From the NCBI RefSeq assembly GCF_044324875.1, contig NZ_CP172185.1: 64,000 nucleotides of DNA. One strand, 5' to 3'. Positions 1 to 44,598 of this stretch are shown here, one piece after another. This DNA comes from Escherichia coli (GTDB taxonomy: Bacteria; Pseudomonadota; Gammaproteobacteria; Enterobacterales; Enterobacteriaceae). The translations under genes were made by a program, and so were the position numbers. Positions within the stretch are counted from its first letter, which is position 1. Each line of letters opens with the position of its first letter. The notes beneath the pieces are model-generated. The model searched no databases. It saw nothing but the letters and a program-made list of their open reading frames with translations, and was not told the DNA's origin.

Positions 1-768
1 GATGGCTATCTGTGCCACGCTGGCATTCCTTTCGGCTCCCATTTTTTTCATGGCGGCGGTTAGTCTTTCTATCTGCGGCAGTACTGCGTTATAACTTTCG
101 GCCCGGCCACTCCCGGCAGGCATGGGATGATTTGAATCATAACGACCACTGAGCGCGCCTTGCTCCAGGACCATGTAAGCAAAGAACGTGATGTTATTTT
201 GTCGGCAATAATCAAGGATCCCGGCCTCTTCAGAAGCGCGATAGAGCAGGCTGTAGTGATTTTGTACTGCACTGAGGGAATAACCGGAAGCGTTAAGGAT
301 TTCATTGGCGCGTCTGATTTGTGCCAGATTGTGGTTGGAAACACCTACGCGTTTTACCTTACCGCTTTGTAAAAGTGGGATCAATCCTGGCGTCCATTTT
401 TCGACGTCGAGGGGATTATGGATCCAGTAGATATCAATCGCGTCCACGCCCAAGCGCCCAAGGCTGGCCTCAAGCATATCGCTGACAGGCTGCGCAGACT
501 GCTTGTCCGCAATCTGCGGCGTGAATTTGGTGGATAAAATTATGTTCTCGCGAGGAAACTGACGGACTAATGCTCCCAGCGCAGTCTCGGAACTCCCCAT
601 ACCATATACTGCTGCGGTATCCCAGAGATTGAGGCCCTTACTCATGGCCGCAGTGAACACTTCTGCCATCTGAGTATCAGAAAGATGATTACCAAAGACG
701 GTGTCGCCGCCGGCAAAGCCTGTGCCCCAGGACCATGTACCTAGTGCGACTGGAGGTAGTGTTTTCAT
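1..768 (-). CDS. Aldo-keto reductase family oxidoreductase, 3' end beyond window edge
   Basis: Hand translation of the minus strand from ATG at 768 gives MKTLPPVALGTWSWGTGFAGGDTVFGNHLSDTQMAEVFTAAMSKGLNLWDTAAVYGMGSSETALG... open to position 1 (about 256 codons, no stop). AGGAG ribosome-binding site upstream. Absent from ORF track because it is truncated by the window edge. Confidence 0.75.
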   Translation of the reverse strand, partial: MKTLPPVALGTWSWGTGFAGGDTVFGNHLSDTQMAEVFTAAMSKGLNLWDTAAVYGMGSSETALGALVRQFPRENIILSTKFTPQIADKQSAQPVSDMLEASLGRLGVDAIDIYWIHNPLDVEKWTPGLIPLLQSGKVKRVGVSNHNLAQIRRANEILNASGYSLSAVQNHYSLLYRASEEAGILDYCRQNNITFFAYMVLEQGALSGRYDSNHPMPAGSGRAESYNAVLPQIERLTAAMKKMGAERNASVAQIAI

Positions 769-829
769 ATTCAGCTCCTGAAAAAAGGCCGGATCGTGGC
801 TGACTTAAACCGGCCAAGTAAGGAATTAA

Positions 830-1519
830 TTAAGCTGTCCGGCGGAGTGCATTTAACAGCGCCACACCAACCCCATGTGCTGAAGCGGGATTCTGCCCCG
901 TGATAAGGCGATCGTCGGTAACCACGTTTTCAGACCAGTTTGGAGCTTCATGATAAAGCGCACCATGCTCGCGAAGTGCGGTTTCAAGCAGGAAGGGAAC
1001 CACATCTGTTGTGTGAACTTCTTCCTCTTCCTTGTTGGTAAAGGCCGCCACATTTTTCCCTTTTATCAGGTATTCGCCGCTACTGAGTTTTGCGTCAACC
1101 AATGCCGCAGGCCCGTGGCAGACGGCTGAGACAATCCCATCACTTTCATACACTTCGCGGATAATACGCTGGGCATCCTGATTATCACGGAAATCCCACA
1201 TGGTCCCATGACCACCTGCAAAGAAAACTGCGCTGTAATCGGCACCTTTCAGCTCGGATAACGCAGGTGTTGTTGCCAGGCGCTGCTGAAAATCGGTTTC
1301 GTTCCAGTACCAGGCGTTAACAGGGTCGCTGAGGTTAAATCCATCCACCGGTGGCTGCCCCCCGCGAATACTGGCTATTGTTGTTTTTATTCCGGCATCT
1401 TCCAGTACTTTCAGCGGATGAGTCAGCTCGGCCAGGAAAAAACCGGTTGGTACACCGGATGCGCCTTTAATCGGATGGCTGGAAACGACACATAGCACTG
1501 GTTTATATGCAGGTTTCAT
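830..1519 (-). CDS. DJ-1/PfpI superfamily protein (class I glutamine amidotransferase-like; putative amidase/glyoxalase/hydratase)
   Basis: ORF 830..1531; start moved to ATG at 1519 (MKPAYKPV...) which has a GAGGA ribosome-binding site. Contains the nucleophile-elbow motif AVCHGP typical of DJ-1/PfpI proteins; ~229 aa. Confidence 0.75.
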   Translation of the reverse strand: MKPAYKPVLCVVSSHPIKGASGVPTGFFLAELTHPLKVLEDAGIKTTIASIRGGQPPVDGFNLSDPVNAWYWNETDFQQRLATTPALSELKGADYSAVFFAGGHGTMWDFRDNQDAQRIIREVYESDGIVSAVCHGPAALVDAKLSSGEYLIKGKNVAAFTNKEEEEVHTTDVVPFLLETALREHGALYHEAPNWSENVVTDDRLITGQNPASAHGVGVALLNALRRTA

Positions 1520-1527
1520 ATCGGTCC

Positions 1528-1839
1528 TCACTCTTTATTTTTAAATTCATCGGCGAAGAGATTTTCCCAGTTAATAAAGGAGCCAAGCGGTATACACTCG
1601 AAGCTTAGTAAGCCTGCTTTTGCCAACGGGAATTCGGCCATAACGTTCATCGCTTCATCGACAGAGTCACATTCAAGAAAAATAGCGACGCCAGGTCTGT
1701 CCTGACGGAAGTAGATGTCGCGGATGAAGCCTGATTTATACAATCCCCAGGCGTGCAGAGCTTCAGCGTTGAGGTGCGGAGCATATTTCTCCAGCGATGC
1801 TACAGGGGCAGGGATATCCAGACATAAAATTCGCATCAT
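1528..1839 (-). CDS. Small conserved protein of unknown function, first gene of the operon
   Basis: 103-aa ORF with AGGAG ribosome-binding site; its stop overlaps the alternative GTG start of the DJ-1 ORF (GTGA). Family assignment not possible by eye. Confidence 0.55.
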   Translation of the reverse strand: MMRILCLDIPAPVASLEKYAPHLNAEALHAWGLYKSGFIRDIYFRQDRPGVAIFLECDSVDEAMNVMAEFPLAKAGLLSFECIPLGSFINWENLFADEFKNKE

Positions 1840-1975
1840 AGTCTCCTGAACTCAGGTCGTAGTAGAAAGAGACTAAAGTATAAGAGGCGTATTTCAGGAA
1901 GATTAGAGGGTCATTGACTTAAGCATTTTTAGACTGTACTTAATAATCAGGCGAGAATTGCTTTAGGAAAACATT

Positions 1976-2875
1976 ATGAATAACGCTCTTTATAACCAGA
2001 TTCGCATCTTCCAGAGCATTGCGCGGGAGGGCAATATTTCGGCAGCCGCAAGGAAACTGGAAATTACGCCTCCCTCCGTCAGCAATGCACTAAAGCTGCT
2101 GGAAGAGTATATCGGTCATCCGCTTTTTGTGCGTACGACCCGCCGTATAGAGCTGACGGAAACCGGTCAATTATTGCTGGAACAGACCGCTGCGGCGGTG
2201 GAGTCGCTGGAAAACTCACTTGAAAGCATTCGCGACCAGCATCAGGAGCCCTCAGGGATGGTGCGAATTACGCTCTCGCGTTTTGCCTACCTGTTAATTC
2301 TTAAGCCTGCGATGGCAGAATTCTGTCAGCAATATCCGGGTATACAGTTAGAAATTTCGGTCTACGACGGTACCGTGAATATCATCAAAGAGCGTTTTGA
2401 TCTGGGGATCCGTTTTGGCGATATTCTTGAGGGAGGGGTGGTGGCCCGACCGTTAATGAAACCGTTTCGTGAAGGATTATATGCATCCTCAGCGTATCTC
2501 TCCCGACATGGAACGCCTGAAGTGCCGGCAGATCTCTGTCATCACCAGCTGATTGGTTACCGTTTTATCACCAACAACCGCATCCTTCCGCTGCTCCTGA
2601 ACGATCGCGGTGAGCAGTTGACCGTTGAGATGCCGGGGCAGTTAATCAGCAACGATATTGACGTTATGGCAGACGGGATCCGTAACGGGCTGGGAATTGG
2701 GCGCTTGTTTGAGCCTGTCTGGCAGTTACAGCCGGACAGGGAGCGCTTTATTCCGGTGATGGAGAGCTACTGGAAAACCTACCCGCCAGTGTATCTCTAT
2801 TACCCCAAAAACGCGGGTAAAACGAAAAGAGTGAAGGCCCTGATTGATTTTCTGATATCCACTACGGGGCGATAA
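1976..2875 (+). CDS. LysR-family transcriptional regulator, divergent from the small-protein/DJ-1/AKR operon
   Basis: 299 aa; N-terminal helix-turn-helix region (IFQSIAREGNISAAARKLEITPPSVSNALKLLEEYIGHPLF) and LysR-type co-inducer domain; divergent arrangement typical of LysR regulators. Confidence 0.85.
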   Translation: MNNALYNQIRIFQSIAREGNISAAARKLEITPPSVSNALKLLEEYIGHPLFVRTTRRIELTETGQLLLEQTAAAVESLENSLESIRDQHQEPSGMVRITLSRFAYLLILKPAMAEFCQQYPGIQLEISVYDGTVNIIKERFDLGIRFGDILEGGVVARPLMKPFREGLYASSAYLSRHGTPEVPADLCHHQLIGYRFITNNRILPLLLNDRGEQLTVEMPGQLISNDIDVMADGIRNGLGIGRLFEPVWQLQPDRERFIPVMESYWKTYPPVYLYYPKNAGKTKRVKALIDFLISTTGR

Positions 2876-3166
2876 AGACGATAACGCCTCGTTCGGTATG
2901 GAGATGCATCGAATGGCATTGTGAGTTTTTTTTCACAGATGGGCGTAATCGTCAGTGGATTTTACATACAAGGATAGCGCCCACATACTGACATCATTAA
3001 TTAACGTTGGGTGAGGTTTACCGGGGGGAGGGGAAAGCGAACCAGGAGATGGAGGTGGCCAATCTGGTACGAACCGCCGCGTAGCTTGCACGGCAAAAGC
3101 TGCTGACTGATTCATCAGTTAAGCTACTGAAAGAGCGGAACACATGAACTTAAGAACAAACCCACC

Positions 3167-3273: not shown

Positions 3274-4458
3274 TTACTTAATACCGTATTCTCGGCTTAA
3301 CCGGCCGTGCAACCTCAACACATTGGTTTCAACTGCCGTCACCACGTTCTCCGGAAAATCTGTCGGTAATGAAGTCTTCACGTTATCCAGTGCTGCCGGA
3401 ATCATTCTGGCAAAGTCACTCAGGATTTCATGCATCTGCACTTCCGGAAATTTCAGCAACTTTGCTGTCGCCAGAAAATGTCGCGGATAAATTTTATCGA
3501 TTGCCGTTTTTTTGCCTTTGGATGCGTTAAGCCCCATTGCCAGTTTGAACCACTGGAACACCTGAAACTTCATAAAATCATAGCGATCTTTCAGCGCCTC
3601 GCTGGACCCCATCAAAAAAGCCATGATCCGCGCGATGCCTGGGCCTCCATCTGATTCATATTTCACCGATGAAGTTAAACCGAATGTCTGACACATATCC
3701 TCCTGTGGCAAGCGAAGTAAAACCGTTCGCTCAGCATTCCAACGCCTGTCAAAACGTTCGACCGCTAACGCGCGCACATTCCCCGCTTTAATGATTTCTG
3801 CGTCCGGCACATTCAACCCAAGTTCTTTCGCCAGCAGCAGACAGTAATACTCATTATCAACGCTTTGGCTGAGATCGAGCGTCGCATTGGGCTGCCTGAT
3901 TTCGCCAATCGGTAATTTAATGATGTGCGTCGTCGGCGTTATTCCTTTCGGAATGCACCAGTCATTGCCTATTCTGAGCAGCGCTGTCTTCTCCTGCGCG
4001 CCAGCAACCGAGATGCGAAAGTCATTTTCTTCTCTAATCATGCCCAGAGGGATATCTGCTTTATAAGCCGTTAATACTTCTTCAAGTCTGGCTTCAGTAA
4101 GCTTTTCCCATGCCATTATCGGATGCGTTACGGTTTCGTCTTCGGGTATTAACGTCACGGCACCAACGCTGTCTCGCCCTATTTCTGACAATAAATCAAA
4201 CGGTTGTCTGGATTTGGCATGATAACGTTTAACGATCCGGTCACGTACAATCGGGCTATCGGGTAACAGATTATCGAAGAAGTTAAATACGGCATCAGAG
4301 GTGATATTCCCCCTCTGCAATGGCAGCGAAAGTGACAACGGTCTGGCATAACGGCTGGCTAACCACTCCGGTGCATACTTAAAGGTGTGCGCGCCGTTGG
4401 CTAACTTCGTTAACTCGCCTACCCGCTGGTTGTTCATCCAAGTGACAAGTTTAGGCAT
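3274..4458 (-). CDS. hipA: HipA serine/threonine kinase toxin homolog with in-frame internal deletion of ~46 residues (catalytic core missing)
   Basis: N-terminus MPKLVTWMNNQRVGELTKLANGAHTFKYAPEWLASRYARPL and C-terminus LRLHGRLSREYG.K match HipA. Product is 394 aa versus 440 aa for K-12 HipA. At the junction ...KFQVFQW-FK-LAMGLNASKGKK the segment recalled as LIGATDGHAKNFSVF...GIHISDL is absent. Start reassigned from ORF-track 4515 to ATG at 4458. Confidence 0.85.
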   Translation of the reverse strand: MPKLVTWMNNQRVGELTKLANGAHTFKYAPEWLASRYARPLSLSLPLQRGNITSDAVFNFFDNLLPDSPIVRDRIVKRYHAKSRQPFDLLSEIGRDSVGAVTLIPEDETVTHPIMAWEKLTEARLEEVLTAYKADIPLGMIREENDFRISVAGAQEKTALLRIGNDWCIPKGITPTTHIIKLPIGEIRQPNATLDLSQSVDNEYYCLLLAKELGLNVPDAEIIKAGNVRALAVERFDRRWNAERTVLLRLPQEDMCQTFGLTSSVKYESDGGPGIARIMAFLMGSSEALKDRYDFMKFQVFQWFKLAMGLNASKGKKTAIDKIYPRHFLATAKLLKFPEVQMHEILSDFARMIPAALDNVKTSLPTDFPENVVTAVETNVLRLHGRLSREYGIK

Positions 4459-9723: not shown

Positions 9724-9778
9724 GGTGATGCTGCCAACTTACTGATTTAGTGTATGATGGTGTTTTTGAGGTGCTCCA

Positions 9779-10054
9779 GTGGCTTCTGTTTCTATCAGCT
9801 GTCCCTCCTGTTCAGCTACTGACGGGGTGGTGCGTAACGGCAAAAGCACCGCCGGACATCAGCGCTATCTCTGCTCTCACTGCCGTAAAACATGGCAACT
9901 GCAGTTCACTTACACCGCTTCTCAACCCGGTACGCACCAGAAAATCATTGATATGGCCATGAATGGCGTTGGATGCCGGGCAACTGCCCGCATTATGGGC
10001 GTTGGCCTCAACACGATTTTACGTCACTTAAAAAACTCAGGCCGCAGTCGGTAA
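9779..10054 (+). CDS. insA: IS1 InsA
   Basis: 91 aa [51 protein letters not shown]... Confidence 0.95.
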
Positions 10055-10476
10055 CCTCGCGCATACAGCCGGGCAGTGACGTCATCGTCTGCGCGGAAAT
10101 GGACGAACAGTGGGGCTATGTCGGGGCTAAATCGCGCCAGCGCTGGCTGTTTTACGCGTATGACAGGCTCCGGAAGACGGTTGTTGCGCACGTATTCGGT
10201 GAACGCACTATGGCGACGCTGGGGCGTCTTATGAGCCTGCTGTCACCCTTTGACGTGGTGATATGGATGACGGATGGCTGGCCACTGTATGAATCCCGCC
10301 TGAAGGGAAAGCTGCACGTAATCAGCAAGCGATATACGCAGCGAATTGAGCGGCATAACCTGAATCTGAGGCAGCACCTGGCACGGCTGGGACGGAAGTC
10401 GCTGTCGTTCTCAAAATCGGTGGAGCTGCATGACAAAGTCATCGGGCATTATCTGAACATAAAACACTATCAATAA
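9973..10476 (+). CDS. insB: IS1 InsB (transposase made as InsAB' by -1 frameshift)
   Basis: 167-aa ORF overlapping insA in the -1 frame; the A-run frameshift site TTAAAAAACTC lies in the overlap. Confidence 0.9.
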
Positions 10477-10729
10477 GTTGGAGTCATTACCGAAAATTAC
10501 CATCATCATATTTAACAAAGAATAGCACTAATTGCTAAAAAAAGAAGTTTATTAAACCCCTTTTTCATCCATTAATGCCTTTAGGAATATTCGATATAAA
10601 ATAAGGGTTATGCTTAATGCTTTAAGAAAAATAGCAATTTCCCCTTGAATATATTACGGGCGATGGAACGATGAATCTGCAAGCTGGCATTTAACAAACC
10701 AGCTCTAAAAGAAGGGAAATAAGAATACT

Positions 10730-23051: not shown

Positions 23052-24470
23052 TCAGACAACTTCCTCACCGTAACGCATAGTGCTGGTACGGTTGCGCCCA
23101 TCTTTCTTCGAGCGATACAGACACGTATCGGCTTCGACCATCAATTTATTAAAGTCATCGGTCAGCGTTCGGTACGATGCGCATCCACTACCGACGCCAA
23201 TACTTACCGTGAGATAAAGCGTTTTTTGTTGCCAGGTGAACGGTTGCAATTCAACGCCTTTACGGATTTTTTCCGCCATTAGCAAACCATCGACAGGATT
23301 CACCGACGGCACTGCAACAGCAAATTCTTCGCCGCCCATTCGCGCCACCAGCCCCTTATCACCGACAATCTTCTGAATATGCTGGGCAAACACGCTTAAC
23401 ACTTTATCGCCACATTCATGTCCATAGTTATCGTTAATGCTTTTGAAATAGTCGATATCAAGCAGCATGACAGTCAGATGTTGTGTCTGTTTCAGCGATG
23501 GACTTTTCAGCGCCTCATAAAGACCGGACCGTGAGTAAACCTGAGTCAGAAAATCAAAGTCGGCTCGCAGCGCAACTTGCTTCATTAGCGAATTGATCGC
23601 TGCCACGCTAAAAGAAACCATAATTGGGCATATCGCCATCGTGGCAATACCGAGACGTGCGGAGAACATTTGCGGAATGGAGAACGGCGAACCGACCGAG
23701 ATATCAATCACTGAATTTGCCACCAGTACGATTTCCACCGCACCGGTGACAAAGGTCAACAGACATGTTACCTGCGGCGTATAGCGCACTGCACACCAGA
23801 TTAATGCAGGCAGCGGGAACGCCAGACTCCCCGCTCCGCCAATGACTACCGAGGCAATAACCGACACAATAAGCGCGATAGCGGGCATCATCTGTTCTGC
23901 TTTAAAGCGCGGCAGCACTCCAGGAATTGCCAACGTCAGCATACAAGGCACGATCAACACGCCCGTTGAGAATTGCTCACTGAACCAGTCGGCAAGCAAA
24001 GGCCAGAAATCCAGACTATCAATACTGACCGAACCAATCGCCCCGACAATAGCGCATAATAATGCGGCAATCAGACAGTAATTAAATAGCCGTAAGGCAC
24101 TTACTGGCTCATACTTATTTTTCCCCAGACGCTTATCCCGCGCGACCAGTAAGGCGACGGTAACAATAAACATCATATTGGAGAAATTGATAGCCAGTGA
24201 AACCAGCCCCCATTCGGTGGTTATGGCATCATAAACCAGCATTGCCACATAACTGATCGCATAGTAATGCAGTCGATTAAGCCAGACATAGCGGGCAAAC
24301 ACCCCCGCCATTACGCCATTCAGCGGCCAGAAAAGAGAAAGTTCGTGAACCAGCCGTAACTCTGCACCAATAAAATAGAACAGCGTGGTTAGCGCAAAAA
24401 TAGCGATGCTATTACGTAGCAGATGACCTTCCTGGAACAAACGGAAAGTTGAAATGGGCTGTACATGCAT
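23052..24470 (-). CDS. dgcF: Membrane-anchored diguanylate cyclase (N-terminal multi-helix sensor domain + GGDEF)
   Basis: 472 aa; hydrophobic N-terminal half, then GGDEF domain with RMGGEEFAV. Exact start uncertain. Confidence 0.85.
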   Translation of the reverse strand: MHVQPISTFRLFQEGHLLRNSIAIFALTTLFYFIGAELRLVHELSLFWPLNGVMAGVFARYVWLNRLHYYAISYVAMLVYDAITTEWGLVSLAINFSNMMFIVTVALLVARDKRLGKNKYEPVSALRLFNYCLIAALLCAIVGAIGSVSIDSLDFWPLLADWFSEQFSTGVLIVPCMLTLAIPGVLPRFKAEQMMPAIALIVSVIASVVIGGAGSLAFPLPALIWCAVRYTPQVTCLLTFVTGAVEIVLVANSVIDISVGSPFSIPQMFSARLGIATMAICPIMVSFSVAAINSLMKQVALRADFDFLTQVYSRSGLYEALKSPSLKQTQHLTVMLLDIDYFKSINDNYGHECGDKVLSVFAQHIQKIVGDKGLVARMGGEEFAVAVPSVNPVDGLLMAEKIRKGVELQPFTWQQKTLYLTVSIGVGSGCASYRTLTDDFNKLMVEADTCLYRSKKDGRNRTSTMRYGEEVV

Positions 24471-24608
24471 TAATTATCTGTCCATACAATTGCGGGTGGC
24501 AATTATCTCAACGTAATAAGTAAATTCTTATAAAGGATAGCATGTTCGCTGACAGCGGCGGCAAATAAAGATATCCTGGGAATGCTATTTTATCGTTTTC
24601 CGCGATTA

Positions 24609-37140: not shown

Positions 37141-37385
37141 ACTGACTCCTTAATTGCGTTTGGTTTGACTTATTAAGTCTGGTTGCTATTTTTATAATTG
37201 ACAAATAAGAATACTGCCAATTGTTATAAGGCATTTAAAATCAGGCAACTAGCTGTCAAATATTAAGAGAATTTAACTCACTAAAGTAAGAAGAAGATTA
37301 AAGAGTCTTAAACATATTTCAGAACAATCAGATTTATAAATTTGAAAATTATTATAACGGAAGGGTATACAAAAAAAGTAATTTT

Positions 37386-37460
37386 GCTGGCGACTGCGAA
37401 ACGGCATTCGCATTAGCGGTGAAGTTTGCCCCCACCCAGCTGCTGCAATTACTGCTCTAA
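37386..37460 (+). pseudogene. ydeJ: Possible 3'-terminal remnant of ydeJ (CinA-like) after an AT-rich replacement
   Basis: No ORF of 60 aa or more between ydeI and dcp. GC-rich ~75 bp ending in TAA (...AGDCETAFALAVKFAPTQLLQLLL*) follows ~240 bp of very AT-rich sequence with an abrupt composition shift near 37385. ydeJ identity is by position only. Confidence 0.3.
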
Positions 37461-37504
37461 CCAGGCTGGCCTGGCGATATCTCCAGGCCAGCCATTGGTG
37501 GTGT

Positions 37505-39550
37505 TTATATGTTCAAGCCACGATGTTGCAGCATCGGCATAATCTGAGGTGCCTTACCGCGCCATTGTCGATACAGGCGTTCCAGATCTTCGCTGTTACC
37601 TCTGGAAAGAATCGCCTCGCGAAAACGCCGCCCATTTTCACGCGTTAATCCGCCCTGCTCAACAAACCACTGGTAACCATCATCGGCCAACATTTGCGTC
37701 CACAGATAAGCGTAATAACCTGCGGCATATCCGCCACCAAAAATATGGGCGAAATAACTGCTGCGATAGCGTGGCGGTATAGCGGGAAGATCCATATTTT
37801 CTGCCACCAGCGCCCGCAATTCGAAATCATCGACATCCTGCATTGCTTCGTTTTCTTCCAGGCAATGCCAGCGCATATCGAGAAGTGCGGCGCTAAGCAG
37901 TTCGCTCATCTCATACCCTTTATTGAACAGGCTGGCATTACGCATTTTCTGTTGCAGTTCGTCAGGCATTGCTGCCCCGCTCTGATAATGCCGGGCGTAG
38001 CGAGCGAATACCTGCGGATGCGTTGCCCAGTGTTCGTTGATTTGCGACGGAAATTCGACAAAATCACGCGGCGTGTTGGTGCCGGAAAGTGTGGCATAAC
38101 GCTGGCGGGCAAAGAGGCCGTGCAACGTATGACCAAATTCATGGAATAAGGTTATGACATCATCCCAGAGTAACAACGCAGGCTCACCGGCAGCGGGTTT
38201 CTGATAATTGCAGACGTTATAAATTACCGGATGCGTTTCATTAAGCGTTGATTGCTCAACAAAATTGCCCATCCATGCACCGCCGCTTTTTGAATCACGG
38301 GCGAAGAAATCACCGTAAAATAACGCCAGCCCCACGCCATTATGATCAAAAATTTCCCATACACGAACGTCAGGATGGTAGACAGGAATATCAAAACGTT
38401 CGACAAACTTAATACCGAAGAGCTGATTCGCGGTCCAGAATACACCTTCATTCAACACCGTGTTTAATTCAAAATATGGCTTGAGCTGCGATTCATCGAG
38501 ATCGAATTTCTCACGTCTTACCTGCTCGGCATAAAATGCCCAGTCCCACGGCTGCGCGCTAAACCCGCCCTGCTGCTTATCGATAACCGCCTGTATGGAG
38601 GCTAATTCATCGCTCGCACGTTGACGCGCCGCTGGAACAATTTCCCGCATAAAGTTGAGTGCTGCTTCTGGCGTTTTTGCCATCTGATCGGCGATTTTCC
38701 ATGCGGCATAATGAGGGAAACCAAGCAGTTTCGCCTGCTGCGCGCGGATCTCCACCAGACGTTGAATGATAGCGCGGGTATCATTGGCATCATTTTTTTC
38801 CGCTCGCGTCCAGCCCGCAGTGAACAGTTTTTCACGCGTCGCGCGATCGCGCAGTTCAGCAAGCGCTGGTTGCTGGGTGGTATTCAGCAACGGAATCAGC
38901 CATTTGTTATCCAGACCTTTCTCGCGAGCCGCCTCTGCCGCCAGCGCAATCTCTTGCTCACTCATTCCTGCCAGCTGCGCGAAATCGTTCACAACCAGAC
39001 CGCCGGATTTATTTGCTGCCAGTAACCGCTGGTTAAACTGGCTGGTCAGGGTCGCAGCTTCTGTATTCAGGACTTTTAATTTTGCTTTATCAGCTTGTGC
39101 AAGTTTGGCTCCGGCAAGGACAAAACGTTGATGAATGACCTCCACCAGGCGGATGGATTCACTATCAAGTCCCAGGGATTCACGGCGTTGCCAGACAGCA
39201 TCTACCCGCGCGAATAATTCACCGTTCAGATAGATATCATTAGCCAGTTCCGCCAGTTCAGCGGAAAACTGTTCATCAAGACGCTGTAATTCATCATTAG
39301 TATGCGCCGCAGTCATCGCAAAAAAGACGCTGGTAACGCGGGTAAGTAATTCTCCGCTTTGTTCCAGTGCCAGAATAGTATTGTTGAAATCAGGTGTTTG
39401 CGGGTTAAGCGCGATGGCAGCAATTTCTGCCCGCTTTTGCTGCATTCCCTCATCGAATGCCGGGCGATAGTGATGATTGGCAATTTGATCAAAATGGGGA
39501 GCCAGATACGGCAGTGTGCTTTGCACAAGGAAAGGATTCATTGTTGTCAT
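37505..39550 (-). CDS. dcp: Dipeptidyl carboxypeptidase II (M3 zinc metallopeptidase)
   Basis: Start trimmed to MTTMNPFLVQ giving 681 aa; HEXXH motif HEFGH. Confidence 0.95.
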   Translation of the reverse strand: MTTMNPFLVQSTLPYLAPHFDQIANHHYRPAFDEGMQQKRAEIAAIALNPQTPDFNNTILALEQSGELLTRVTSVFFAMTAAHTNDELQRLDEQFSAELAELANDIYLNGELFARVDAVWQRRESLGLDSESIRLVEVIHQRFVLAGAKLAQADKAKLKVLNTEAATLTSQFNQRLLAANKSGGLVVNDFAQLAGMSEQEIALAAEAAREKGLDNKWLIPLLNTTQQPALAELRDRATREKLFTAGWTRAEKNDANDTRAIIQRLVEIRAQQAKLLGFPHYAAWKIADQMAKTPEAALNFMREIVPAARQRASDELASIQAVIDKQQGGFSAQPWDWAFYAEQVRREKFDLDESQLKPYFELNTVLNEGVFWTANQLFGIKFVERFDIPVYHPDVRVWEIFDHNGVGLALFYGDFFARDSKSGGAWMGNFVEQSTLNETHPVIYNVCNYQKPAAGEPALLLWDDVITLFHEFGHTLHGLFARQRYATLSGTNTPRDFVEFPSQINEHWATHPQVFARYARHYQSGAAMPDELQQKMRNASLFNKGYEMSELLSAALLDMRWHCLEENEAMQDVDDFELRALVAENMDLPAIPPRYRSSYFAHIFGGGYAAGYYAYLWTQMLADDGYQWFVEQGGLTRENGRRFREAILSRGNSEDLERLYRQWRGKAPQIMPMLQHRGLNI

Positions 39551-39686
39551 TTTCTTCTCCTGAACGCGAGGTGTTCCATAGCGTAGGCTTACTGATAACG
39601 GAGTGCAATCTTGCAAACCAGTATTACCCGCTCTTAAGCATCACGTGCTATGTTATTGACACACAAAAGCGTTGAGGAACAGTGAG

Positions 39687-40433
39687 ATGATCGTTTTAGT
39701 AACTGGAGCAACGGCAGGTTTTGGTGAATGCATTACTCGTCGTTTTATTCAACAAGGGCATAAAGTTATCGCCACTGGCCGTCGCCAGGAGCGGTTGCAG
39801 GAGTTAAAAGACGAACTGGGAGATAATCTTTATATCGCCCAACTGGACGTTCGCAACCGCGCCGCTATTGAAGAGATGCTGGCATCGCTTCCTGCCGAGT
39901 GGAGCAATATTGATATCCTGGTAAATAATGCCGGCCTGGCGTTGGGCATGGAGCCTGCGCATAAAGCCAGCGTTGAAGACTGGGAAACGATGATTGATAC
40001 CAACAATAAAGGCCTGGTATATATGACGCGCGCCGTCTTACCGGGTATGGTTGAACGTAATCATGGTCATATTATTAACATTGGCTCAACGGCAGGTAGC
40101 TGGCCGTATGCCGGTGGTAACGTTTACGGTGCGACGAAAGCGTTTGTTCGTCAGTTTAGCCTGAATCTGCGTACGGACCTGCATGGTACGGCGGTGCGCG
40201 TCACCGACATCGAACCGGGTCTGGTGGGTGGCACCGAGTTTTCCAATGTCCGCTTTAAAGGCGATGACGGTAAAGCGGAAAAAACCTATCAAAATACCGT
40301 TGCATTGACGCCAGAAGATGTCAGCGAAGCCGTCTGGTGGGTATCAACGCTGCCTGCTCACGTTAATATCAATACCCTGGAAATGATGCCGGTTACCCAA
40401 AGCTATGCCGGACTGAATGTCCACCGTCAGTAA
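39687..40433 (+). CDS. ydfG: NADP-dependent 3-hydroxy acid dehydrogenase (SDR family)
   Basis: Start trimmed to MIVLVTGATAGFGE giving 248 aa; SDR glycine-rich motif. Confidence 0.9.
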   Translation: MIVLVTGATAGFGECITRRFIQQGHKVIATGRRQERLQELKDELGDNLYIAQLDVRNRAAIEEMLASLPAEWSNIDILVNNAGLALGMEPAHKASVEDWETMIDTNNKGLVYMTRAVLPGMVERNHGHIINIGSTAGSWPYAGGNVYGATKAFVRQFSLNLRTDLHGTAVRVTDIEPGLVGGTEFSNVRFKGDDGKAEKTYQNTVALTPEDVSEAVWWVSTLPAHVNINTLEMMPVTQSYAGLNVHRQ

Positions 40434-40521
40434 TTTTTATACCCGGCGTAACTGCCGGGTTATTGCTTGTCACAAAAAAGTGGTAGACTCATGCAGTTAA
40501 CTCACTCACAAGCAAGAACGA

Positions 40522-41208
40522 ATGACCGTCGAAACGCAACTTAATCCCACACAGCCTGTCAATCAGCAGATTTATCGTATTCTTCGTCGCGACATTGTCC
40601 ATTGCCTGATTGCACCAGGCACACCGTTGTCGGAAAAAGAAGTTTCTGTTCGTTTCAATGTGTCACGCCAGCCGGTTCGTGAAGCCTTTATTAAACTGGC
40701 GGAAAACGGCCTGATTCAAATTCGTCCGCAGCGTGGCAGCTACGTCAACAAAATTTCCATGGCCCAGGTGCGCAACGGCAGTTTTATCCGTCAGGCCATT
40801 GAGTGCGCGGTGGCGCGTCGGGCGGCGAGCATGATTACCGAAAGCCAGTGCTACCAACTGGAACAAAATCTTCACCAGCAACGCATTGCCATTGAGCGCA
40901 AGCAACTGGATGATTTTTTTGAACTTGATGACAACTTCCATCAACTCCTGACGCAGATTGCCGACTGTCAACTGGCGTGGGATACCATTGAGAACCTGAA
41001 AGCGACCGTTGATCGCGTGCGCTATATGAGTTTCGACCACGTTTCTCCACCAGAAATGCTGTTACGCCAGCATCTTGAGATTTTCTCTGCCCTGCAAAAA
41101 CGTGATGGCGATGCGGTAGAACGTGCAATGACGCAACATTTGCAGGAAATCAGCGAATCCGTGCGCCAGATCCGCCAGGAAAACAGCGACTGGTTTAGCG
41201 AAGAGTAA
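40522..41208 (+). CDS. ydfH: GntR/FadR-family transcriptional regulator
   Basis: 228 aa with N-terminal GntR HTH and FCD domain. Confidence 0.9.
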
Positions 41209-41384
41209 TTCATTTCCTCTCATCCCATTCGGGGTGAGAGTCTCTCCCCCCGCCTTATGGCTCATGCATGCATCAAAAAAGATGTGAGCTTGATCAAAAA
41301 CAAAAAATATTTCACTCGACAGGAGTATTTATATTGCGCCCGTTACGTGGGCTTCGACTGTAAATCAGAAAGGAGAAAACACCT

Positions 41385-41588
41385 ATGACGACCTACGATC
41401 GTAACCGTAACGCAATCACCACTGGCAGCCGTGTTATGGTTAGCGGCACCGGTCACACTGGCAAGATCCTGTCGATTGATACTGAAGGTCTGACCGCTGA
41501 GCAAATCCGCCGCGGAAAAACCGTAGTTGTTGAAGGTTGTGAAGAGAAACTGGCACCTCTGGACCTGATTCGTCTCGGCATGAACTAA
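41385..41588 (+). CDS. ydfZ: Small selenium-binding protein YdfZ
   Basis: 67 aa [67 protein letters not shown]. Confidence 0.9.
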
Positions 41589-41594
41589 GCGTGT

Positions 41595-41625
41595 GAATGC
41601 CGCCGATGGCGGCATTGCTTTTTTT
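41595..41625. terminator. Terminator between convergent ydfZ and ydfI
   Basis: Hairpin AATGCCGCC-GATG-GCGGCATT followed by TTTTTTT on the + strand. Confidence 0.55.
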
Positions 41626-43084
41626 ACTTCACGGAATATTTCGCAACGGTCGCTTTCGCACCATGCGCTAATAAAGACAAGTACGCTTCCGTCACTTTTG
41701 CAGTAAACAAGCTATTGTCTGGCAAATCATCACCAAAGATCGCCTTAATCGCCAGCAATGACTGGACGCGCGCTTTCCCTTCGGCACTACTTTGTACAGC
41801 CTTCTGAATAACAGGTAACAGTGGGTCACTGCTTTCTATCGGATTTCCCTGTTCATCAACACCACCGACATAACGCATCCAACCTGCGACGCCCAGCGCC
41901 AGCAGATCGAACTTGCTGTCATGCGCCAGATGCCAGCGAACAGAATCCAACATCCGCTGTGGCAATTTCTGGCTGCCATCCATCGCAATCTGCCAGGTTC
42001 GATGACGTAGCGCCGGGTTGCTATAGCGTTCAATTAATCGGTTAGCGTAATCTTGCAAATCAACGCCCTGCACTTTCAACGTCGGCGCTTGTTCCTGCAA
42101 CATCAAGGCATACGCTGCATGACGATAATGTTCATCTTCCATGCAGTCATTAATGTGCTGATATCCGGCAAGATACCCCAGATACGCCAGGAATGAATGA
42201 CTGCCGTTGAGCATGCGCAACTTCATCTCTTCATAAGGCAGCACATCACTAACCAGTTCGGCTCCCGCTTTTTCCCATTCCGGACGTCCGGCAACAAAGT
42301 TATCTTCTATTACCCACTGGCGGAAAGGTTCACAGGCAACGCCAGCAGGATCGCGCACACCGGTAAGTTGTTCGATTTTCGCCAGCGTATCCTCTGTCAC
42401 TGCGGGCACAATACGGTCCACCATTGTTGATGGGAAAGTCACGTTTACTTCGATCCATTGTGCCAGTTTTACATCAACAGCTTGCGCGTAGGAAGTGACA
42501 ACGTCACGCATAACATGACCGTTTTCTGGCATGTTGTCACATGACATGACGGTAAATGCGGGAAGTCCTGCCGCTTTACGGCGAGCCAGCGCCTCAACAA
42601 TCACCCCTGTTGCAGTTTTCGGCTGGTGGGGATTTTGCACGTCGGCAGCGACCATCGGGTGATCGAGCATTAACTGTCCGGTCGCCGGAGAGTGGAAATA
42701 CCCTTTTTCGGTGATTGTCAGAGAGACAATCGCGATTTGCGGTTCACACATCGCAGCCAACACGGTTTCTAAGCCATCTATCTGTACGTGCAAGGCTTTT
42801 TTAACGACGCCAACGACGCGAGCCGTCCACGCATCGGCCGACATTTCCGCAACGGTATAAAGATTATCTTGCTGTTGTAAATCGGCAATTTGCTGTTCGC
42901 CGCCGATTAAATTGACCTCATAATATCCCCAATCACTGAAATGTTTTGTAGCAAGAATATCGGCATACACGCCCTGATGCGCACGGTGAAATGCGCCAAA
43001 GCCTAAATGAACAATTCTTGGGGCCAAGTTATTACGATCATAAACAGGGAGCGTCGCTTTTGCTGATAACAAATTATTTCCCAT
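41624..43084 (-). CDS. ydfI: Mannitol dehydrogenase-family oxidoreductase
   Basis: 486 aa, long-chain mannitol dehydrogenase family. Confidence 0.9.
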
Positions 43085-43173
43085 AACAATTCCTTAAATT
43101 TAAATATGGCAAGCTGCATGTTTTGTTATATGAATAAAAAATCCCCTCTCCGGTAAGAGAAGGGATGGAGGAT

Positions 43174-44541
43174 TTACAGACTTCTTGAAGGTTGCGCAGC
43201 TGTTACAACACGCGGTTGATCTTCCGCGGCATCTTCCAGTGCACTTAAATCACGGTCTCTCACTTCTGGCATTTTCAGCGCAGAGATTAAACCAATCACT
43301 GAATATGCCATGATCATAATGGCGATCGGATACCAGGATTCCGTCATGGTGCAGAAAATACCCGCCAGGATAGGACCAAAACCGGAAGCGATAAGACCAC
43401 CAATTTCTTTAGAAATCGCCATCCGGGTAAAGCGGTTTTTACAGCCGAACATTTCTGCCATGGTAATGTTTTCCAGAGCAAATAATCCCAGCACCGCACA
43501 GTTATGAATCACAATCAGTGCAACCATAATGGTGCTCGGGGCATAGCTTTTATCTACGATGATAGAAAGCATTGGCCACGCCAGCACAATCGCAGAGGTA
43601 TTCATAATAATATACGGGATCCGGCGACCTATTTTATCGGATAACCAACCAAGGAACGGAATGGTCATAAAGCCGAGAATCGAACTGATCATCAATGCAT
43701 CTGTTGGAATTGCTTTGTTAAACAATAACGTCTGCACTAAATAGCCTGCAAGGAAAGTCTGAATTAAACCGGAGTTACCAGCCTGACCAAAACGCAGCCC
43801 TGTTGCCAGCCAGAAGGATTTGCTCTGGAACATGCTACCAGCAGGTGCAGGTTTTGCTGTCGGTTGGTTGCTGTCGTTAACCTTCTCAAAGACCGGGCTT
43901 TCTTTCAGATTCATACGCAACCAGATAGCAAAGACCATCACGACAACGCTCGCCAGGAACGGTATACGCCATCCCCACGCAAGCAGTTCCTCTTTACTGA
44001 GAATGAAGAACATAAAGGCCCAGATTGCCGTTGCGCTCAAGGTTCCGCAGTTAGTCCCCATAGCAACAAATGAGGAGATAATTCCGCGCTTACCTTTTGG
44101 TGCATATTCCGCCAGCATCGTGCCGGCACCGGAAATTTCCGCGCCTGCCCCCAGCCCCTGAATAATACGCAGCGTCACCAGCAAAATTGGCGCAAACACA
44201 CCAATTTGTGCATAGGTCGGCAGCACACCAATTAAGGTAGTACAGATCCCCATCATAGTGATGGTAATAAAGAGCACTTTTTTACGCCCGATTCTGTCGC
44301 CCATTTTGCCGAAAATAAATGCTCCGACAATACGCGCCACATAACCTGCACCGTAGGTTCCCATTGCCAGAATTAACGCCATTGCCGTTGATGATTCAGG
44401 AAAAAATATTTCATGAAACACTAACGCTGCGCCGAGCGAATATAACTGGAAATCCATAAATTCAAGCGCAGTGCCCAGCCATCCCGATACTGCTGCTTTC
44501 ACCAAATCCTTAGTGCTTCTTTCGTGTTTTTCTATTGTCAT
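43174..44541 (-). CDS. ydfJ: MFS metabolite:H+ symporter, intact
   Basis: 455-aa uninterrupted 12-TM MFS ORF (MTIEKHERSTKDLVKAAVSGWLGTALEFMDF...). Confidence 0.85.
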   Translation of the reverse strand: MTIEKHERSTKDLVKAAVSGWLGTALEFMDFQLYSLGAALVFHEIFFPESSTAMALILAMGTYGAGYVARIVGAFIFGKMGDRIGRKKVLFITITMMGICTTLIGVLPTYAQIGVFAPILLVTLRIIQGLGAGAEISGAGTMLAEYAPKGKRGIISSFVAMGTNCGTLSATAIWAFMFFILSKEELLAWGWRIPFLASVVVMVFAIWLRMNLKESPVFEKVNDSNQPTAKPAPAGSMFQSKSFWLATGLRFGQAGNSGLIQTFLAGYLVQTLLFNKAIPTDALMISSILGFMTIPFLGWLSDKIGRRIPYIIMNTSAIVLAWPMLSIIVDKSYAPSTIMVALIVIHNCAVLGLFALENITMAEMFGCKNRFTRMAISKEIGGLIASGFGPILAGIFCTMTESWYPIAIMIMAYSVIGLISALKMPEVRDRDLSALEDAAEDQPRVVTAAQPSRSL

Positions 44542-44598
44542 AATGGTTATCTCTAAAAAAGAGGTAAGATGCGTACTACTTACTCGCCGTTATTGGTA

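Follow-up and report, generated by a model that had tools for sequence, protein, structure and literature searches.

Prophage insertion at the ydfJ locus

The cryptic prophage Qin of Escherichia coli K-12 is the closest described counterpart of the locus considered here, and has been placed at the 5′ end of ydfJ, where it removes the 28 N-terminal codons of the gene together with its promoter (Ramisetty & Sudhakari 2019, PMC6379469). The same study describes Rac, likewise a lambdoid cryptic prophage of K-12, whose site-specific insertion into the 5′ end of ttcA alters the N-terminus of the host protein. The gene, the core sequence, and the integrase all differ from those of the ydfJ site.

In the genomics of Shiga toxin-producing E. 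coli (STEC), ydfJ is known as a common prophage locus, which is also used by effector-carrying prophages, and the prophages found there take part in large chromosomal inversions, with ydfJ as one of the inversion end-points (PMC8112680, PMC8767318, PMC9997748). According to one of these papers, many E. coli, K-12 among them, have phages integrated at ydfJ, and the legend of its S7 Fig describes an att of 18-19 bp for the “PPydfJ” prophages, with the attB represented by the unoccupied ydfJ of the O104:H4 strain C227-11 (Nakamura et al. 2021, PMC8112680). Both the insertion of Qin and the att of ydfJ are thus already published, and an empty ydfJ site is a known and ordinary strain polymorphism.

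The DNA analysed here, referred to as the window, is a stretch of 64,000 nucleotides of E. coli (assembly GCF_044324875.1, contig NZ_CP172185.1). At the same locus as Qin in K-12 (NC_000913.3), and with the same core sequence, the window carries the uninterrupted version, which differs from K-12 in having no prophage, a YdfJ of 455 rather than 427 amino acids, and no separate ynfP. The locus is almost certainly the empty attB of the lambdoid phage family to which Qin, mEp460, and the PPydfJ prophages of STEC belong, with its core in codons 26-32 of ydfJ. As this attB is empty, ydfJ is whole and still lies 57 bp downstream of rspB, and the conserved gene cluster is kept.

Organization of the ydfJ–rspB locus

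The ydfJ gene occupies positions 43174..44541 on the minus strand, as a single, uninterrupted, ATG-initiated open reading frame of 455 codons in the ORF listing for 40-49 kb, and is 100% identical to genes annotated as ydfJ in many RefSeq genomes of E. coli. Its product scores 462.9 bits against the NCBIfam model TIGR00883 (MHS), with a curated cutoff of 443.45, and residues 23-418 cover the profile from end to end (1-400 of 400), on which basis YdfJ is predicted to be a full-length member of the metabolite/H+ symporter (MHS) subfamily of the MFS transporters. The preliminary description had reported an intact MFS reading frame of 455 amino acids, separated from rspB by 57 bp, and both statements are borne out, given that the intercistronic spacer defined by the ends of the two reading frames, and read out directly from the sequence, extends over exactly 57 bp (44542..44598).

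On the far side of this spacer, rspB (44599..45618, minus strand) encodes a Zn-dependent oxidoreductase that matches the equivalog model NF007489 over the entire profile (1-339 of 339) with 694.7 bits. Its start was taken from K-12, through coordinates mapped by blastn, which gives a protein of 339 amino acids, while the mechanical reading frame would reach a GTG at 45642. It is preceded by rspA (45630..46844, minus strand), which belongs to the ManD-type D-mannonate dehydratase family (742.9 bits against NF043051, cutoff 550) and is annotated in both strain M7424 and K-12. Downstream of ydfJ lies ydfI (41624..43084, minus strand), which encodes a dehydrogenase of the fructuronate-reductase family (648.7 bits against NF011611, cutoff 603), followed by rspR, or ydfH (40522..41208, plus strand), the GntR-family regulator of the cluster, which is collinear with the “repressor RspR” of K-12 and has matches in the GntR family. 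Strain M7424 is 100% identical to the window over 2.6 kb, as are many other RefSeq chromosomes of E. coli, and in its RefSeq annotation the genes ydfJ, rspB, and rspA are spaced as they are here.

Comparison with K-12 MG1655

In the RefSeq annotation of K-12 MG1655, the “cryptic prophage Qin” extends from 1632277 to 1652745, between ydfJ (b1543) and ynfP-rspB, and includes ydfK, pinQ, cspI/B/F, relBE, hokD, dicC/A/F/B, and an intQ pseudogene. Local blastn alignments show the window to be collinear with K-12 from 37381 to 44464, as far as K-12 position 1632291, and again from 44446 to 48447, starting at 1652743; as collinearity holds on both flanks, the window lacks exactly the 20.5-kb Qin. The statement in the preliminary description that Qin, with dicABC, relBE, and cspBFI, lies between the two genes in K-12 is thus confirmed by both the annotation and the alignment, which also locates the interruption within ydfJ, at 44446..44464, where the two collinear blocks overlap by 19 bp.

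In K-12, ydfJ is truncated at its 5′ end by Qin, but it is not annotated as disrupted, contrary to the preliminary description, given that the current RefSeq record has no pseudogene flag, and presents instead a 427-amino-acid coding sequence (b1543), which overlaps the boundary of Qin at its 5′ end, together with the separate ynfP. On translation, the 36 amino acids of “ynfP” prove to be residues 1-31 of YdfJ followed by KSHAC, derived from the end of Qin, while the K-12 YdfJ starts at Met29, whose ATG falls inside the att core. In the O157:H7 strain JEONG-1266, the truncated ydfJ does carry a pseudogene flag from PGAP (“missing N-terminus”), and lies beside a lambda-like prophage with DUF1076 genes. 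For the purposes of annotation, the ydfJ of the window should be called an intact gene of 455 amino acids, and the K-12 “ynfP” and 427-amino-acid YdfJ should be regarded as the halves of a single gene split by Qin.

The att core and the region of strand exchange

The overlap between the collinear blocks, together with both Qin junctions, defines the unoccupied attB core of the Qin/mEp460-type lambdoid phages as the 19-bp sequence CTGGAAATCCATAAATTCA (44446..44464), which is present once in the window. On the coding strand of ydfJ it reads TGAATTTATGGATTTCCAG, and extends from the third base of the codon for Leu26 through Gln32 of YdfJ. The core is found at both of the Qin junctions of K-12, with one mismatch on one side and a one-base difference on the other, both phage-derived, and is also present at the rspB-side junction of an O145:H28 genome and the ydfJ-side junction of O157:H7. 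In the window, by contrast with these occupied loci, the two host flanks run into one another through the core, uninterrupted by DNA of phage origin. The size and location of these 19 bp, which were derived independently, agree with those given for the PPydfJ att in the legend of S7 Fig (PMC8112680).

The attB and the phage attP share an identical segment of 11 bp, GAAATCCATAA (44449..44459), and differ immediately beyond it, with T in attP as against G in attB on one side, and AA as against AAA on the other. When the junctions of K-12, O145:H28, and O157:H7 are compared, the ydfJ-side junction combines a host-type G with a phage-type AA, while the rspB-side junction combines a phage-type T with a host-type AAA. 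Because the flanking variants of attB and attP segregate in this way to opposite junctions, strand exchange is inferred to occur within the 11 bp at 44449..44459. According to the junction sequences, an integrating phage recombines its attP (TCTTGAAATCCATAA-TTCA) with the attB (ACTGGAAATCCATAAATTCA), with the crossover falling within the common GAAATCCATAA. The exchange would presumably be catalysed by a tyrosine integrase, as suggested by the annotation of the integrases and by standard lambdoid biology. Following integration, the first 31 codons of ydfJ remain behind rspB, as in the “ynfP” of K-12, and the other 427 codons are shifted approximately 20 kb or more from rspB.

Phage partners

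The O145:H28 genome carries, at the same junction, a lambdoid prophage with an intact integrase of 431 amino acids, an excisionase, exo, and dicB. This integrase shares 95.8% identity with its counterparts in the sequenced phages mEp460_ev081, HannyBb, PhiR42_1, and Tritos. With the integrase of an Stx2a-converting phage it shares 94.5% identity across 85% of its length. In mEp460 and HannyBb, the genes run in the order exo-xis-int, a short gap, a ydfK-like gene, pin, and a tail-fibre assembly gene, an arrangement that is that of the two ends of Qin joined together.

The attP of mEp460_ev081 and HannyBb, TCTTGAAATCCATAATTCA, lies approximately 35 bp downstream of int (3830..3848 of the compared segments), and the gap between int and the ydfK-like gene contains TCTTGAAATCCATAA-TTCA and then caggtgtttttt, which in K-12 directly adjoins ydfJ. 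Like the window, mEp460 (LR597641.1) and HannyBb (PP925841.1) contain GAAATCCATAA, which is located in the phages between int and ydfK/pin, alongside the cognate integrase. They differ from it in being the phage partners, where the window is the bacterial site, and their attP is shorter by one A (ATAA-TTCA), with a T for G on the other flank.

Occupancy of the site in E. coli

A query of 400 bp centred on the core was compared with 5426 complete genomes of E. coli, and found a match in 5374, of which 2006 (~37%) have an empty site, that is, the 400 bp are contiguous. A longer query, of 2.6 kb, covering ydfJ-rspB, is contiguous in 2010 complete genomes. In a spread sample of the non-contiguous genomes, nearly all break at the core (query positions 190/193 and 208), with a single exception, in which the match is limited to positions 321-400 of the query.

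In about 12% of the sampled genome rows, including O157:H7 JEONG-1266, the ydfJ-side piece is the only one present, and the rspB-side piece is found nowhere. This suggests that the junction close to rspB was deleted or rearranged in these lineages, which would fit the inversions and deletions that have been published for the ydfJ prophage cluster.

Arrangement in other Enterobacterales

The arrangement outside E. coli was assessed by scanning for the degenerate coding motif WLGTALEFMDFQ in a single genome of each species, a requirement that biases the sample of species, and by identifying the neighbouring genes in the loci listed through tblastn with the RspA, RspB, YdfJ, YdfI, and RspR of the window. 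Loci were kept when the identity of YdfJ was at least 70%, which drops the distant MHS paralogues of the Actinobacteria, and when the upstream sequence extended over 1.1 kb or more. The loci listed include no Escherichia or Salmonella, and come from genera such as Enterobacter, Citrobacter, Klebsiella, Pectobacterium, Serratia, Gilliamella, and Providencia.

Of the 55 non-E. coli loci of the Enterobacterales kept among those listed, 51 have rspB immediately before ydfJ and in the same orientation, with gaps of 36-299 bp (median 61), and the 57-bp spacer of the window is typical of these values. Two of the four exceptions still have rspB and ydfJ adjacent to one another, with gaps of approximately 420 bp, and most of the loci listed run on into ydfI and the divergent rspR. 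Given the adjacency in 51 of the 55 outgroup loci listed, the arrangement in the window can be considered to be ancestral, so that the description of this locus as an unoccupied ancestral site holds, both in this respect and in the absence of Qin.

The 11-bp exchange segment is kept in approximately one third of the sampled ydfJ genes of the Enterobacterales, among the loci listed. The target chosen by the phages is the most conserved N-terminal motif of the MHS family (EFMDF), and, as a highly speculative extension, integration might be possible across genera through the 11-bp segment, where it is kept.

Alternative explanations for the empty site

The insertion of Qin in the spacer between rspB and ydfJ, with an att located there, would account for the interval that was chosen in the preliminary description to mark the empty site, a choice of coordinates that is the only point in its favour. 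The locus is indeed unoccupied, as claimed, but the insertion point lies 78-96 bp into the coding sequence of ydfJ, outside the spacer, and K-12 retains the entire 57 bp, together with the first 31 codons of ydfJ, next to rspB. The proposal that att-like repeats might be present in the spacer was not sustained either, given that a fuzzy search for the core over the whole window recovered no such sequence in the spacer, and matched only the true core (44445..44464) and a stretch of hipA (3562..3580), which was rejected as a chance resemblance, with two substitutions plus indels. An insertion in the spacer is thus refuted by the collinearity with K-12, the junction sequences, and the fuzzy search, and its probability is negligible. 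It is just as hard to credit that the adjacency of ydfJ and rspB is the product of a collapsed assembly or the imprecise deletion of a prophage, for which no supporting point was found, given that the reading frame of ydfJ is intact and of full length, the junction is identical to that of approximately 2000 independent complete genomes, and both the gene order and the length of the spacer agree with those of other genera.

A more substantial alternative is that the emptiness is secondary, that is, that an ancestral prophage at ydfJ was lost through precise excision by Int and Xis, which regenerated the attB, in a reversion that only looks ancestral. The site is occupied in approximately 63% of the complete genomes of E. 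coli, there are resident prophages with functional int and xis, and a perfect attB is compatible with this history, because excision is scarless. Positive evidence of such an event is lacking, however, many of the residents are defective and unable to excise, as in the case of Qin, whose intQ is a pseudogene, and the site is empty in 30 of the 30 near-identical genomes (~100% over 2.6 kb) among the matches listed, which means that any loss of a prophage predates that group. A secondary origin of the empty attB is therefore considered to be rather improbable. Whatever its history, the site is empty, and the strain is therefore a potential recipient for phages of this type.

Transcription and role of the cluster

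The cluster consists of the co-directional rspA-rspB-ydfJ-ydfI and the divergent rspR, and the products of the four co-directional genes all score above the curated cutoffs of their own NCBIfam models. These family assignments fit a unit for the uptake and catabolism of sugar acids. The role of the cluster is reportedly the catabolism of L-gulonate, a finding that is said to be that of Wichelecki and colleagues in Biochemistry in 2014.

A pattern scan of the 57-bp spacer found no promoter-like or terminator-like site, and its RNA fold is no better than that of shuffled sequences (z = +0.24). Between ydfJ and ydfI, beginning 8 nt past the ydfJ stop, the same type of scan identified a terminator-like hairpin with a U-run (43141..43166, minus strand), composed of an 11-pair stem followed by TTTTTATT. 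This hairpin is found in the minimum free energy fold, and the 101-nt region as a whole is weakly better than its shuffles (z = -1.1). It is a possible terminator or attenuator that would set ydfI apart from rspAB-ydfJ.

The ydfJ gene would normally be co-transcribed with rspAB, in which case a copy split by a prophage would lose its promoter, and the truncated YdfJ protein would probably be non-functional. The truncation of ydfJ and loss of its promoter published for Qin in K-12 agree with this reading (PMC6379469). While K-12 does not have the complete rspAB-ydfJI cluster, the strain of the window offers it intact for physiological study.

A far-reaching extension of these observations would be that prophages at the ydfJ attB create an on/off polymorphism, at the level of the population, in a pathway for the uptake of sugar acids, with its dedicated transporter being disconnected in approximately two thirds of E. 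coli and the full pathway kept in strains such as the present one, in which case excision-competent prophages could restore it reversibly, in a manner similar to “active lysogeny”. This is a highly speculative scenario, and one that is very unlikely to be correct.

Additional features of the window

Two copies of IS1, each of 768 bp and 100% identical, are found in inverted orientation at 9724..10491 and 48448..49215, bracketing approximately 38 kb that include lsr, mar, and the rsp-ydfJ cluster. The copy located between the stop codons of speG and ynfC is flanked by a target duplication of approximately 8-9 bp (CACAATAG), and is missing in the otherwise 100% identical strain M7424. Its exact junction is contiguous in none of the 5,426 complete genomes, and an IS1 is present near speG/ynfC in four of them. 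The other copy replaces approximately 845 bp of the yneO region of K-12, and has no duplication.

The hipA gene (3274..4458, minus strand) has an in-frame deletion of 46 codons in comparison with K-12, corresponding to residues 303-348 of HipA, and the stretch that is missing holds the motifs GATDGHAKN and FYDIIS. The remainder is approximately 99% identical to K-12, and hipB is retained. We take these motifs to be the catalytic and Mg-binding loops of the kinase, and if this is right, the HipA of the window is probably a kinase-dead toxin.

The dgcF (yneF) gene (23052..24470, minus strand) is present as a reading frame of 472 amino acids, with a long N-terminal extension that is missing in K-12 and which, by eye, is putatively membrane-spanning. 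The additional DNA lies at 24038..24535, and as K-12 lacks 499 bp here, and has only 315 amino acids annotated, the K-12 dgcF is apparently truncated at its 5′ end. At 37378..37381, between ydeI and dcp, the ydeJ region of K-12 (~478 bp, 1624735..1625211) is missing, and M7424 has only a small annotated pseudogene fragment at this position.

The first 3165 positions of the window (1..3165) have no counterpart in the collinear region of K-12, which has the ydeQRST fimbrial genes and yneL. They encode proteins of 233, 103, and 299 amino acids, of which the first and the last are, by eye, a putative DJ-1/PfpI-like protein and a putative LysR-type regulator. At the opposite end, the window departs from K-12, which has asr there, past the ynfM terminator (63440..64000), and this segment contains a minus-strand reading frame for a putative TnpA transposase of the IS200/IS605 type, as judged by eye from its translation.
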